A stretch of 60,717 nucleotides of DNA, the filler included, from Dugesia japonica (lineage: Eukaryota), in NCBI GenBank assembly GCA_001938525.1. It is 5 parts of 5 records of this genome, joined end to end, with 100 filler letters (N's around TTAATTAATTAA, not from the genome) between each part and the next. Parts side by side here need not be neighbours in the genome. Positions count along the whole stretch, not along the records: positions 22,624 to 36,631 come from MQRL01587459.1; 4 more parts are not named here. The stretch is one strand, 5' to 3'. Positions within the stretch are counted from its first letter, which is position 1. Every line of letters begins with the position of its first letter. The position numbers were made by a program, and so were the translations under genes. Below are positions 23,127 to 35,208 of the stretch, one piece after another. Under the pieces are notes generated by a model. That model ran no database searches. It was given only the letters and a program-made list of their open reading frames with translations, and was not told the DNA's origin.

Positions 23127-24004
23127 ATGAGTGCTCAGAAAAAAGTTGTTCAAGAAGAAAAAATTAAATGTGAATTAACATTAGTTTCATTAATAAATTC
23201 ATTAGAAGAATTTGGAGATATAGAAGAGATGAATTTAGATGAATTAAAAGAATATTTAAAAAATGATTTAACAAAAGATACCGCAAAACATTATTTAGAT
23301 TATCTTTCTAAAGTGTATAAAAAATTAGATGAAATAAATTTAGAAGAAGAAAATAAAAATTTATTTAAAAAAGTAATGAATGTTATTGTTACAAAATATA
23401 CAGAAAGTGAAAGTCGAGGTTTAATGGTTGAATTATTTAAGAAAAAGNNNNNNNNNNNNNNNNNNNNNNNNNNNNNNNNNNNNNNNNNNNNNNNNNNGAA
23501 TTAAAAGAATATTTAAAAAATGATTTAACAAAAGATACCGCAAAACATTATTTAGATTATCTTTCTAAAATGTATAAAAAATTAGATNNNNNNNNNNNNN
23601 NNNNNNNNNNNNNNNNNNNNNNNNNNNNNNNNNNNNNNNNNNNNNNNNNNNNNNNNNNNNNNNNNNNNNNNNNNNNNNNNNNNNNNNNNNNNNNNNNNNN
23701 NNNNNNNNNNNNNNNNNNNNNNNNNNNNNNNNNNNNNNNNNNNNNNNNNNNNNNNNNNNNNNNNNNNNNNNNNNNNNNNNTAACAAAATTAAATGAAAAA
23801 GTAAAACCAATAAAAGTTGGAGATGTTTTAATAAAAGTTTATAATAAACCAGGTAAAAAGAAAAAAAGATTAACTGCTAAACGTTATAATGTTTTACTTG
23901 AAGATGAAGATATTAATGATTTTTCTACAGAAAAATATACTCGCATTCCAGCTAAAAAAGAAATTACTGGAGCAAATAGAGTTTATGTTAAAAAATCACA
24001 ATAA
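23127..24004 (+). CDS. Polinton hypothetical protein (gapped; helical N-terminus, basic C-terminus)
   Basis: ORF pieces 23127-23447 and ~23781-24004 separated by gaps; may be one or two genes. Confidence 0.55.
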
Positions 24005-24017
24005 GAAATAGCGAAGC

Positions 24018-24383
24018 ATGGATGATAATTCAGTTTTTTATAAAATGTTAAAGGAATATGATTTTAAAGATAACTCTATACAAAGTTTTTGTAAAATTTA
24101 TAATGTAAATGGTAATATAGTAAAGAAATATTTAAAGATGTGGAATATCGAATNTAACGCCAGAACATGGAACCCTGGTAGAAATTTACAAAGAAATTCA
24201 CATGGATGTTTCATTTCTTTAATAGACCGTTTTGAGAAACAACATGTTAAACCACCTATTAATCAACCTGTTAAACTAAATGTTAAACTAAATTTTAAAC
24301 CAAATGTTAATTGTGGTGATAATTATGATGATTTTATTTGTGAGATGGAAAAAATAAACAAAATAAAGTTTACAGTAAAGTAG
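24018..24383 (+). CDS. Polinton hypothetical protein, 121 aa
   Basis: Clean ORF preceded by the TAAGAAAT motif. Confidence 0.6.
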   Translation: MDDNSVFYKMLKEYDFKDNSIQSFCKIYNVNGNIVKKYLKMWNIEXNARTWNPGRNLQRNSHGCFISLIDRFEKQHVKPPINQPVKLNVKLNFKPNVNCGDNYDDFICEMEKINKIKFTVK

Positions 24384-24495
24384 CCTTATGTTATATTATC
24401 TTGTATTATATGTGGTTAAAGTTATATTTTAGTTAAGTTAACATATAGATAAATAAAAAAAACACATGCATAAAAAAACACTCTAAGAAATAGAA

Positions 24496-25824
24496 ATGAA
24501 AGTAAAGTTAGATTTAGATGATAATATTCAATTTTCACATACATCGATTAAAAATGATTTACTTATAATTTCCCCATCAGCATCATCATTAAATAAATTA
24601 AATTCTTCAGGGGAAATAGTATTTCAAAGTTTACAATCAACAAATCCACTTGATATTTGTAATTCAATGTTATACTTTGAAATTGAAACAACACCTTCTG
24701 ATGTAAATAAAATAACATTAGAAAATAATTTCTTTCCAAGTTTATTTAGTTCAATGAGATTTATAATAGGTTCATCNNNNNNNNNNNNNNNNNNNNNNNN
24801 NNNNNNNNNNNNNNNNNNNNNNNNNNNNATAACTACAAGTGAAACATGGAAAAAAGAATATGGTCAAATGTCAGGATGGATACCAGATATAAATAAAGGT
24901 GATACTGAAATAAAAAGTTGGGAAAATAACTTGGGGTATTATAATAGAAAGAAATTATATTCAACAAAAAGATTTGAAGGTTATTTTCAATTGAGAAATT
25001 TATTTGGTTTCATGCAAAATTATAATCGTCTTTTATATAATACAATGATAGAGTTTAGATGTAATAGACAACTTGAAGATAAACTATTATTTTATGGAGA
25101 TGCCGTATCATCAGGAAAAGTTAAAATATTAACTTTAGAACTTCACATTTATTACCTAGAAAAGAATTATCAATATTAGAAAGAATAGCCACAGATAAAC
25201 CTATTAAAGTTTCTTATTTAAATCGTATAACAGGAAAAACTAATATTGAAACAGGTGGAAATTACACAATTAAAATAAGTAGTTTAGCTTATCAACCAAG
25301 ATTTGTTTTTATTTGTTTTAAAGATAATGATATTTCTTATGAAAAAAATAATAATCTATTTATACAAAAATCTACTAAAAAAGTTAAAGAAGGAAATCCA
25401 GAAGTGGAAGTAACAAAAACTAGTTATTTACAAAGTATACAATTAGTATTAAACAATACTTATTATCCAATAATTAAATGTGAATTTAACATGTTAAATA
25501 ATCAAATGATTTATCCTTACATGGCATATGTAAAATGTTGTCATAAATTTTTTACAGANNNNNNNNNNNNNNNNNTGGATTTTGGTAATTTATATCCAAT
25601 GTTTTGTTTTGACACTTCAGCTCATGATGATAAAATGAATATTAATAATGTAGATGTNNNNNNNNNNNNNNNNNNNNNNNNNNNNNNNNNNNNNAAAAGA
25701 TCCAGATTTTAAAGGAACTATTCATTGGTGTATACTTGAAGAAAAACATATTGAAATGAAATTATCCAACAGTAAAATTGTTATGATAGAAAATATTAAA
25801 GGTTTTGATATAAATTTAATATAA
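24496..25824 (+). CDS. Major capsid protein (double jelly-roll, hexon-like), frameshifted near 25165
   Basis: LENNFFPSLFSS, LRNLFGF..YNR, then another frame QPRFVFICFK..LNNTYYP..YPMFCFDTS; typical Polinton MCP size and pattern. Confidence 0.8.
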
Positions 25825-25850
25825 GAAATAGCGAAGCTAGCCTACGGATA

Positions 25851-33043: not shown

Positions 33044-33721
33044 TTAATGTCTATATTTACGTAAATGAACTAAAACAGAAATCGTTTCTTGATTAAAATC
33101 TATTGTGTTAAAGTTTTCATCTACAACATTAAATTTTAAACTTGAAATGTAATTTGTATTAATTTTAGAATAAATTGTAACAGCTGGTCTTTCTATAATT
33201 TTAAATCCAAATGCCACTGTATTAATTGGAAATGAATATAATAAATTAATTTGTTTAGATTCACCATGTGGAGATTTTACATAAATACCTTTAACAGTAT
33301 TACAAGTTATATTTATCATGTTAATAGATGAAATATCAATTTTATTATCTGAATAATAATTTCCCGGCGAATAAGATTTTACTGAGAAACTTAAAATTTT
33401 ATGAAAGAAAGATTTATCATCAAAAGTTAATGTGTTAGATGTTTTCATATTACATTTTGTTGTTGAAGTATCTGCAGAAATTACTATTGCATGTTTTTCT
33501 AATTTATTTGATATTTCTTTTATTTCATAAGCTCCTGGTTCAATTTTTTCTTCTTTAGATGTAATTGTAAATTTATTATTTAAATTTGTTATGTTAAAAA
33601 TAATATTATAACATGTAAAACAAATTAATCCTAATTCATATTCTGAATCTAATTCTATAGGATCTTTTAAATCTAATTTCAAATCTTGTTCTTTACCAAC
33701 TATTAAGAATTGATGTGACAT
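33044..33721 (-). CDS. Minor capsid protein (penton-like)
   Basis: PIELD.EYELGL, NITNLNNKF, IEPGAYEI, INITCN.V.G.Y, GFKIIERP, VDEN..IDFNQE. Confidence 0.85.
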   Translation of the reverse strand: MSHQFLIVGKEQDLKLDLKDPIELDSEYELGLICFTCYNIIFNITNLNNKFTITSKEEKIEPGAYEIKEISNKLEKHAIVISADTSTTKCNMKTSNTLTFDDKSFFHKILSFSVKSYSPGNYYSDNKIDISSINMINITCNTVKGIYVKSPHGESKQINLLYSFPINTVAFGFKIIERPAVTIYSKINTNYISSLKFNVVDENFNTIDFNQETISVLVHLRKYRH

Positions 33722-33799
33722 TTCTTAATGAAAAACTTTAGCTTGCGCAGGTTGACTGTTAACATTTAAAATGTTTCATGTAAAATCTCTTGTGTAAAA

Positions 33800-34412
33800 T
33801 CAAAAATATTTCATTTTATATTTATCATAAATCTTGTTAGATATTAAACCCATCATCTTTAATTTTTTACATACTTTTTTAATATCTTCAGATAAATTAT
33901 CATGTCCAGATTTTGCTGCTGAAATTAATAATGTTAACCTTTCAAATAAATTTATAAGACTAAGAGATTCTCCTTTCTTTTGTCTTGGTTTTGGTTTTGG
34001 TTTAATAGGGGTGTCTATTATTTTTGATTTTAAAAATTTAATATATTCATTACCAACTGGTGTGTTTTTTACTATTTCATTTAAATATATTCTAATATTT
34101 TCTAACATATCATCAGAATTATCAGTTTCTATTGTTTTCTTATTACCACAAATTATATCCACAATTATATCTGAATATTCATATTTTTTTCCACCAACCG
34201 AAAAATATTGTTTATCATCAATGTTAAAGAAAAATATAAGCACATTACTACTAGTAAAAGATAATCTTGTAAATTCTTTTTTACCAGTTATTGCTTTGCC
34301 TACTAATGGCAATATTTTTAGTTGAATTATATTTTTATTGAATTCTATTTTTGGGTAAAATGGTGTTATATTATCTTTTCTTAAAAAAATTTAAAAATTC
34401 TCCATCTTTCAT
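33800..34412 (-). CDS. Conserved Polinton hypothetical protein; true start uncertain, likely frameshifted upstream
   Basis: C-terminus KKG..LFERLTLLISAAKSGHD...LKMMGLIS resembles a recurrent Polinton L.RL.LL...AGN motif. Confidence 0.55.
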
Positions 34413-34743
34413 TGTTATTTCTAAATTATATTTATTAGGTTTAAAATAATCTGGTTCGTCTATTGGTTGTTCTTTATTAACAAAACTATTTTTTTCTATT
34501 GCTGTAATTGTTGGTTTTTGTAAAATGGATAAATTACTTTGTAATTCTCTTGACTCAATAACATTNNNNNNNNNNNNNNNNNNNNNNNNNNNNNNNNNNN
34601 NNNNNNNNNNNNNNNNNNNNNNNNNNNNNNNNNNNNNNNNNNNNNNNNNNNNNNNNNNNNNNNNNNNNNNNNNNNNNNNNNNNNNNNNNNNNNNNNNNNN
34701 NNNNNNNNNNNNNNNNNNNNNNNNNNNNNNNNNNNNNNNNNNN

Positions 34744-35200
34744 TATAAGGATTAAAGTAAAGACCATCACCATCTATTTTTATTTGGATGCCATCTTTAA
34801 ATTTTTTTGTTACATCTTTCATGTTATCATCTTCAATAATATTTTTTAAATGTTTATGTATAGCAGTTCCTTGATAAGGATTTAAATATATTCCGGCGCC
34901 AGATTTTTTGACAGCCTCGCTGTCAATCTGTTGAATTTCCTTCCGAACTTTAATTGCATTTCTAGAATTAGTAACAGTACTTGCTATTCCAGATGCAATA
35001 CTAGCAGTTCCGGCTAAAGCTCCGATAATTGCTGGGATTGCAGCTAGAAAAGCAAATCCTCCTTCTTTAGCAGAATCCCTTCGGGATTTTAGCTTTTCTT
35101 TTACTTTTTTAGAAATATAATAATTTTTACCATCTATTTTTACAGATTTACATTTTTTTGAATTTATTATTTTTTCTAATTCTTCTTCAGTCGGATTCAT
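34744..35200 (-). CDS. Adenovirus pX-like core/membrane-active precursor (3' end in gap)
   Basis: Basic N-terminus then KEGG-FAFLAAIPAIIGALAGTASIASGIASTV; two G.G(I/L)Y.NPY motifs. Confidence 0.65.
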
Positions 35201-35208
35201 TTCTTATA

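Follow-up and report, generated by a model that had tools for sequence, protein, structure and literature searches.

Introduction

Short motifs specific to an element type have been described upstream of the genes of the endogenous virophages of Cafeteria (EMALEs), where one of them matches the late promoter of the helper virus (PMC8547959), and upstream motifs are also reported for elements of Halocafeteria (10.64898/2026.07.28.741278) and for virophage types that each carry their own (10.1101/2022.07.28.501842; 10.1101/2025.10.09.676808). Here we describe a word of this kind, TAAGAAAT, in a Maverick/Polinton element that occupies positions 22,624-36,631 (MQRL01587459.1) of a 60,717-nucleotide (nt) stretch of the Dugesia japonica assembly GCA_001938525.1, hereafter the window. 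TAAGAAAT marks seven of the 12 gene starts in this element and is probably a transcription signal of some kind, whatever polymerase reads it. Like the virophages, the element is an integrating and capsid-bearing one that lacks an RNA polymerase of its own and has one short type-specific motif before most of its open reading frames (ORFs), with other words in its relatives. Unlike the virophages, which belong to protists and include a motif (TCTA) that matches a known helper, it is an animal Maverick with an integrase that carries a phospholipase A2 (PLA2)-like domain, and no helper is known for it.

The word also resembles the intermediate/late signal TAAAT(G) of poxviruses and the TAAAN of the yeast pGKL elements, which likewise stand at or just before the ATG and consist of a T followed by an A run; in vaccinia and the yeast linear elements, such initiators are accompanied by slippage on the A run (PMC6211774). 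Poxviruses and pGKL elements encode their own cytoplasmic polymerase, whereas the word of the window is TAAGAAAT and not TAAAT; its final AT is separable from the ATG in four sites, as the G of the poxvirus signal is optional. With the baculovirus late promoter the word shares the letters TAAG, the coding strand and a place upstream of the ATG, but it is longer and fixed, is conserved neither in relatives nor in sister copies, and stands in an element with no such polymerase. In gene content the element is comparable to the Alpha-type adintoviruses, with which it has in common an integrase, an A32 ATPase, a double-jelly-roll (DJR) capsid protein, a protein-primed polymerase, an adenain-like protease, a PLA2-like domain and a pX-like protein (PMC8502044), the difference being that in this element the integrase and the PLA2-like domain form a single fused protein.

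The term "promoter" does not occur in the main text of PMC8502044, neither "promoter" nor "motif" occurs in the accessible text of PMC11296320, and the accessible texts of these two animal Maverick papers and of a third (PMC8097293) contain no promoter analysis. We found no such upstream motif in the literature on animal Mavericks, of which the supplements or Repbase-type annotations may hold one. Type-specific motifs upstream of ORFs are already documented for protist virophages and polinton-like viruses, and what the word adds is a case from an animal Maverick. It bears on the switching-on of the capsid and replication genes in such elements, and a short word in a fixed place provides exact coordinates for 5' end mapping and a direct route to telling autonomous from helper-dependent elements.

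The start word and its sites

Five genes of the element run on the plus strand from the left and eight on the minus strand from the right, and the two arms converge near 28,000. An earlier note on this DNA had listed seven copies of TAAGAAAT directly upstream of start codons, and all of them were recovered exactly, each on the coding strand and beginning 6-29 nt before the ATG. In the following list, the distance is that from the start of the word to the ATG.

24002-24009, plus strand: before ORF-b (ATG 24018), 16 nt; the TAA is the stop of ORF-a; a GC-GAA-GC mini-hairpin follows.
24484-24491, plus strand: before the major capsid gene (ATG 24496), 12 nt; not a stop; preceded by C.
25822-25829, plus strand: before the PLA2-integrase gene (ATG 25851), 29 nt; the last capsid frame stops at the TAA; next come a TAGC-GAA-GCTA hairpin and CTACGGATA.
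27165-27172, plus strand: overlaps the ATG of the packaging ATPase gene (27171), 6 nt; the TAA is the stop of the integrase gene.
29467-29474, minus strand: before the acidic-repeat ORF (ATG 29454), 20 nt; CTACGGATAA follows, which places TAAATG at the start.
33720-33727, minus strand: overlaps the ATG of the minor-capsid-like gene (33721), 6 nt.
35199-35206, minus strand: overlaps the ATG of the pX/PZ-like core gene (35200), 6 nt; 2 nt past the stop of the polymerase gene.

As the earlier note had it, the TAA of the word is the stop of the previous gene in three sites and is not in four; the former are 24002, 25822 and 27165, the latter 24484, 35206, 33727 and 29474. The 16-nt identity between the sites at 24002 and 25822 is real, and so is the CTACGGATA shared by 25842-25850 (plus) and 29464-29456 (minus). 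The final AT of the word lies outside the ATG in four of the seven sites, which are those 12-29 nt upstream. Further occurrences of the word and of similar words in the element are as follows.

23120-23129, plus strand: variant TATAGAAATG at the start of ORF-a, absent from the earlier list.
33038-33043, minus strand: the protease-like gene starts at a TAAATG, immediately behind the preceding TAA stop.
31044-31057, both strands: two copies of TAAGAAAT on opposite strands with a palindromic core, within the 820-amino acid (aa) ORF; not a gene start.
25332-25339, minus strand: copy of TAAGAAAT antisense to the capsid gene; not a gene start.
36271-36278, minus strand: copy of TAAGAAAT within the polymerase gene; not a gene start.

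Exact TAAATG is thus found at two genes of the element, at 33040 and 29454. The four copies of TAAGAAAT away from gene starts (25339, minus; 31050, plus; 31051, minus; 36278, minus), together with two in the 43,386 flanking bases, had been omitted by the earlier note.

The element contains 11 copies of TAAGAAAT in total, only mildly more than the 3.8-5.5 expected under Markov models of orders 0-3, and it is their position that is exceptional. Seven of the 11 fall within the 312 of 25,754 positions that make up the windows from -30 to +3 around 12 gene starts of our own choosing (p = 1.1e-11), and TAAGAAAT ranks best in this positional test among the 11,573 8-mers present. When 12 other ATG windows were drawn 5,000 times, no 8-mer was found in more than five windows, and five was reached three times. 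With the three sites that overlap a stop removed, four of the remaining eight copies still fall in these windows (p = 4.5e-7).

Start words of related Mavericks

The integrase was aligned with the 40 best of 373 homologues, and the search that followed gave 107 metagenome stretches, the best 80 of which were kept; 75 of these loci yielded 222 ORFs of at least 100 aa with 30 nt upstream. TAAGAAAT itself precedes three of the 222 ORFs. A TAAA that starts at -10 to -3 is found before 145 of them, as compared with 1,276 of 8,573 other ATGs (14.9%), and the triplet directly before the ATG is TAA in 92 ORFs, TAG in one and TGA in one.

The poxvirus-type TAAAT, from which the word of the window differs, is well represented in these relatives. 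TAAATG stands at no fewer than half of the genes of eight of the 18 larger loci (at least four ORFs): 11 of 12 in L024, 10 of 11 in L041, nine of 11 in L038, eight of 11 in L037, six of seven in L065, five of nine in L034, four of five in L046 and three of four in L033. An integrase tree was built from the window together with those 24 of the 80 loci that had 180 aligned residues and three ORFs; in it, all eight fall within one starred clade of 15 rows and are therefore not independent of one another. TAAATG at most genes of one branch, a family-level pattern, is more striking than a word in a single element. Other spellings occur as well, for instance AAAAATG at seven of seven starts in L013 and words made of TATA, an A run and G in L048, L052 and L093. 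TAAATG at most gene starts, that of the polymerase gene included, was also noticed in L035 as in L024, L033, L034, L037, L038, L041, L046 and L065, and several first genes of TAAATG-rich Mavericks have in addition a T-rich run and TATAAA 15-30 nt upstream.

A proposed core initiator

Our preferred, and still tentative, reading is that TAAGAAAT is the lineage's spelling of a start word common to the family and serves as a core initiator, with the host nuclear RNA polymerase II as its likeliest reader. The family-wide word would consist of TA and an A run just before the ATG, as in the TAAATG, TAAAAATG and TATAAAAG-ATG of relatives. TAAGAAAT would most likely act as the initiator of individual genes, and with transcription starting inside it, each gene would have a messenger RNA of its own, whose leader would measure 0-25 nt; at abutting genes, the TAA of the word would double as the stop of the previous gene. 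Short word-bearing cassettes appear to have been copied between junctions, which is probably how one spelling spread.

The word stands 12-29 nt upstream with its AT outside the ATG in four of the seven sites, which argues that it is not mere start-codon context. TATA boxes have a spacing of 25-30 nt, and the word, which in three genes begins only 6 nt ahead of the ATG, is too near to be one there; together with the four sites that are not stops, this is consistent with an initiator and very short leaders. The earlier note had proposed an element-specific promoter or initiator, and this proposal agrees with the position and strand of the word, with its being separable from the ATG in four of the seven sites and with the comparable words that relatives have in the same place, while the function itself stays a prediction from sequence. 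The same note had seen no RNA polymerase in the element, which holds for the 14 kb present, the element being cut by a scaffold gap at 36632.

Host polymerase II might be aided by a helix-turn-helix protein encoded by the element, for which ORF-b is the candidate. Its N-terminus is confidently predicted to form a three-helix bundle (predicted local distance difference test about 95), and the best matches of the model are helix-turn-helix domains. ORF-b has 14 distant relatives, and Foldseek searches of PDB and BFVD returned nothing for it at E 0.001 or below; it is absent from all fetched related loci, as is the word. On the basis of the model, ORF-b is a candidate DNA-binding protein that might read the word or the end repeats; that it is the element's own specificity factor for TAAGAAAT is very doubtful.

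The copy number of the family bears on the choice of polymerase. Contigs matching the element at 85% likeness numbered 56,588 and 7,871 in two DNA runs, so that organism A has the Maverick family in abundance and organism B has it as well. This abundance in host DNA suggests a spread without a rare helper, and it is solely for this reason that we prefer the host polymerase to that of a helper. The summed depth over ORF-a and ORF-b in the DNA runs is about 10 times lower than that over the capsid gene, which suggests that these two ORFs belong to a subfamily.

Several observations weigh against the proposed initiator. The exact word is absent at five of the 12 genes, and four of its 11 copies lie inside genes. 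In the integrase tree the window stands outside the TAAATG-rich clade, on a long branch, so that homology between the two words can only be inferred. Many relatives on the window's side have just an A run before the ATG (TAAA in 25 of 47 ORFs of 15 picked loci), and there this A run could be translation context. The helix-turn-helix matches of ORF-b are weak (Z 6.0, root-mean-square deviation 2.5 over 44 residues), and the protein has no Pfam match and no sequence match to solved structures. Conservation in sister elements, which the earlier note had put forward as a check, failed where it could be followed: at one of the seven sites, that of the minor capsid gene, the three sister junctions listed among about 200 joints lack the word, the 75-nt spacer and TAAG, and have instead a TAG stop with an A run, repeated TAA triplets, and TAAAG with an A run, respectively. 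The exact spelling is thus not under family-wide constraint. RNA runs X21 and X22, of which about 6% and 25% were covered, gave 28 and 515 partial reads of the element with no pile-up of ends at any motif; 96% of these reads run on into unrelated sequence, and the element is essentially silent in both runs, so that the reads are uninformative on the start site. Finally, several genes of the element are in pieces and duplicated stretches lie beside N runs, so that the contig may mix copies, and the assembly is gapped.

Alternative explanations

The foremost alternative, which we consider unlikely, is a virophage-like one: the word would serve as a late initiator for the RNA polymerase of a large DNA virus acting as helper, and the words of the Maverick lineages would be those of their respective helpers; for the TAAATG group this would be a pox-like polymerase with 5' poly(A) leaders made by slippage. 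The TAAATG counts of L024, L041, L038, L037 and L065 speak for such a helper, TAAATG having a T at -3, unlike the Kozak context with its purine. The type-specific motifs of virophages match helper promoters (PMC8547959; 10.1101/2022.07.28.501842), polinton-like elements occur with entomopoxviruses (PMC11296320), and the silence of the element in the two RNA runs would also be expected. However, that silence is equally explained by host silencing, the high copy number argues for autonomy, the TAAATG-rich loci are related to one another, no helper is known for the host, TAAGAAAT differs from TAAAT and no virus with TAAGAAAT was found. Viral contigs gave 10 matches to the 16-nt word, none of them close to a relative of the element's proteins and all taken as chance, and a single-protein scan of viral contigs with the integrase returned no relatives. 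It is likewise rather unlikely that animal-type Mavericks carry lineage-specific initiator words in the way of protist virophages and that at least some of these Mavericks are transcribed by the polymerases of large DNA helper viruses, one branch using the poxvirus late initiator TAAATG at nearly every gene and TAAGAAAT then pointing to a different helper yet to be discovered.

The word could also be a neutral or structural by-product without any promoter role, left by cassettes that were copied between junctions through template switching or gene conversion, or a mark of recombination points at which genes are shuffled. Identity does extend beyond the 8-mer, by 8 nt on the 3' side between 24002 and 25822 (chance about 0.005) and by 6 nt on the 5' side between 25822 and 35206 (chance about 0.05), the sister junctions differ, and a 13-nt GC-rich word, TACGAAGTCCAGC, is present in three copies inside unrelated ORFs (28981-28993, plus; 30089-30101, minus; 31878-31890, minus), which suggests copying of short cassettes. 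Yet most of the 21 site pairs have just 0-2 extra bases in common, and copying explains neither the strict strand and distance nor the analogous words in relatives, which makes this explanation improbable.

The GC-rich tails that follow two of the words are mini-hairpins, GC-GAA-GC at 24010 and TAGC-GAA-GCTA at 25828. GCGNAGC hairpins are unusually stable and are found in phage origins and in the N4 promoter (PMC13037366). The element contains 28 C-GNA-G as compared with 8.5 in 500 shuffles (maximum 18), and 17 with a second pair as compared with 2.6 (maximum 8), counts in which some hits are not independent, namely those in the three copies of the 13-nt word, one assembly duplicate and overlapping pairs on opposite strands. 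C-GNA-G is not in excess in the flanks (19/64), and none of the 29 related loci of at least 2.5 kb has a six-fold excess, L013, L015, L056 and L065 showing a two- to four-fold one on small counts. The hairpins are not confined to gene starts in the element; for instance, a stem of six pairs with a GAA loop lies at 35075-35089 (minus).

A translation signal, in which the word combines a stop-restart junction with an A-rich start context and the genes are read from two long transcripts that run inward from the element's ends, is favoured by the uniform orientation of the genes in each arm, by the three sites that hold the previous stop, by stop-to-start gaps of 2-3 nt at other genes and by the purine at -3 of GAAATG. 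The four sites that are not stops, three of which lie about 40-100 nt from the previous stop, and the four that are uncoupled from the ATG speak against it. In the relatives, 64 TAAATG starts have an upstream ORF on the same strand: 47 are at least 7 nt away from it, and in just 11 the start abuts or overlaps it, the TAA being or overlapping the previous stop, a tally of upstream ORFs from 100 aa on, so that short genes may end at a few of the TAA. We regard this explanation as distinctly improbable.

Very improbable is a splice or trans-splice acceptor, with a common leader spliced on at the word's AG or, in three sites, at the TAG behind it, in the manner of adenoviruses or spliced leaders. 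The convergent arms of co-oriented genes, the AG just before each start and the T-rich tract before TAG at ORF-a would suit it, but AAG is a poor acceptor, a pyrimidine tract is absent at most sites, the TAAATG of relatives has no AG, and no RNA joints were seen at a coverage near nil.

The earlier note had likened the word to the baculovirus late TAAG, and this analogy did not survive comparison. In baculovirus late promoters TAAG is preceded by A, G or T; all seven sites have the TAAG core and six fit this rule, but the major capsid site has CTAAG, and the conserved word extends to AAAT. TAAG is tied as the most depleted 4-mer of the element (86 versus 146 expected, an observed-to-expected ratio of 0.59). 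It is depleted in the flanks too (0.78), and equally or more strongly in L013, L015, L027 and L059, where the word is absent (four of 22 loci at or below 0.59; median 0.77), so that depletion as evidence for a promoter was ruled out by these controls. TAAG precedes 23 of the 222 ORFs of relatives and 790 of 8,573 other ATG windows (9.2%; p = 0.56), which is the background rate. The viral polymerase of the baculovirus AcMNPV cannot initiate without TAAG (PMC9786725), and insect cells in use with baculovirus vectors have seen adintoviruses mobilised (PMC8502044). With no conservation in relatives or at the three sister junctions and with CTAAG at the capsid gene, a true baculovirus- or nudivirus-type late promoter, read by a baculovirus-like polymerase of four subunits, is highly implausible, and the likeness is probably superficial. 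A sigma-70 scan, irrelevant here, was at background level (121 versus 110 +/- 12).

Gene content of the element and its surroundings

The segment at 22,624-36,631 is a Maverick/Polinton, identified from its sequence, with some gene names partly inferred. It is a single contig of about 14 kb between two scaffold-gap markers; such markers, N runs around an all-frame stop word, stand at 14093, 22524, 36632 and 45633, and the placement of the element between its flanks has scaffolding as its sole basis. It has a retroviral-type integrase, an A32-like packaging ATPase together with a DJR capsid protein recognized through an L013 homologue with PF21738, and part of a protein-primed B-family DNA polymerase (34-49% identical to ORFs of three loci). 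Terminal inverted repeats and a 6-bp target duplication are further hallmarks of Mavericks; both ends of the element lie at the scaffold gaps (22524 and 36632), and an array of repeats is seen at the left end, with no matching arm elsewhere in the window. The element is 77% A+T over 13,024 non-N bases, and its features are as follows.

22624-23100, strand not assigned: repeat array at the left end; its 14-nt units form three larger blocks, each opening with a G run and then TAAG; probable terminal repeat.
23127-24004, plus strand: ORF-a, interrupted by N runs; no function assigned; HTH_WhiA at E 0.0097, below the cut-off.
24018-24383, plus strand: ORF-b, 121 aa; N-terminal three-helix bundle weakly like helix-turn-helix domains.
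24496-25824, plus strand: major capsid protein gene, in pieces; 35% identity over 233 aa to an L013 ORF with a DJR domain.
25851-27167, plus strand: integrase with an N-terminal PLA2-like domain; Pfam rve E 1.6e-11, Phospholip_A2_4 E 4e-8.
27171-27941, plus strand: A32-like packaging ATPase; Pfam Pox_A32 E 1.5e-8; holds an N run and a duplicated piece.
28099-29454, minus strand: acidic-repeat ORF, in pieces; its last part had no relatives detected among longer proteins, which is weak evidence.
29517-30144, minus strand: conserved ORF, about 23% identical to ORFs of five loci, with an ambiguous start (30144 or 30137); we take it to be PW-like.
30147-32609, minus strand: 820-aa ORF with internal repeats; no function assigned.
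32612-33040, minus strand: adenain-like maturation protease; Peptidase_C5 E 0.13, below the cut-off; 30-41% identical to ORFs of ten loci.
33044-33721, minus strand: minor-capsid-like gene, 27-38% identical to ORFs of eleven loci; named from the family layout, with no named match.
33800-34108, minus strand: 102-aa ORF with an uncertain true start; no motif before the ATG given here.
34496-35200, minus strand: pX/PZ-like core gene; 34% identical to an L013 ORF with Adeno_PX at E 0.0009, below the cut-off.
35209-36631, minus strand: C-terminal part of the protein-primed B-family DNA polymerase, in pieces and cut by the scaffold gap; DNA_pol_B E 0.0098.

The polymerase part is 34% identical to a 1256-aa ORF of L059, and long ORFs of L035 and L038 match DNA_pol_B_2. 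In two relatives, ORFs of 434 aa (L015, 2182-3483, minus) and 470 aa (L096, 9509-10918) open with a protease-like region, the usual length being 130-150 aa, and are possible fusions. The contig of L096 (20.8 kb), which has a Maverick-like gene cluster, is classed as a bacterial metagenome-assembled genome; it is probably there as a binning contaminant.

A tandem array of 30-nt units lies at 21994-22523, just outside the left scaffold gap, and related 31-nt tandem units are found at two distant spots, 1-215 and 37785-37907. The flanks contain fragments of reverse transcriptase, integrase and DDE transposase as well as a single-ORF host gene of 597 aa (51709-53502, plus) with leucine-rich repeats, an immunoglobulin domain and a likely transmembrane segment, of which the best relative is 67% identical, with weak insect and lancelet matches beyond it. 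A long repetitive ORF rich in Asp, Glu and Asn adjoins a gap at 14145-15194 (minus).

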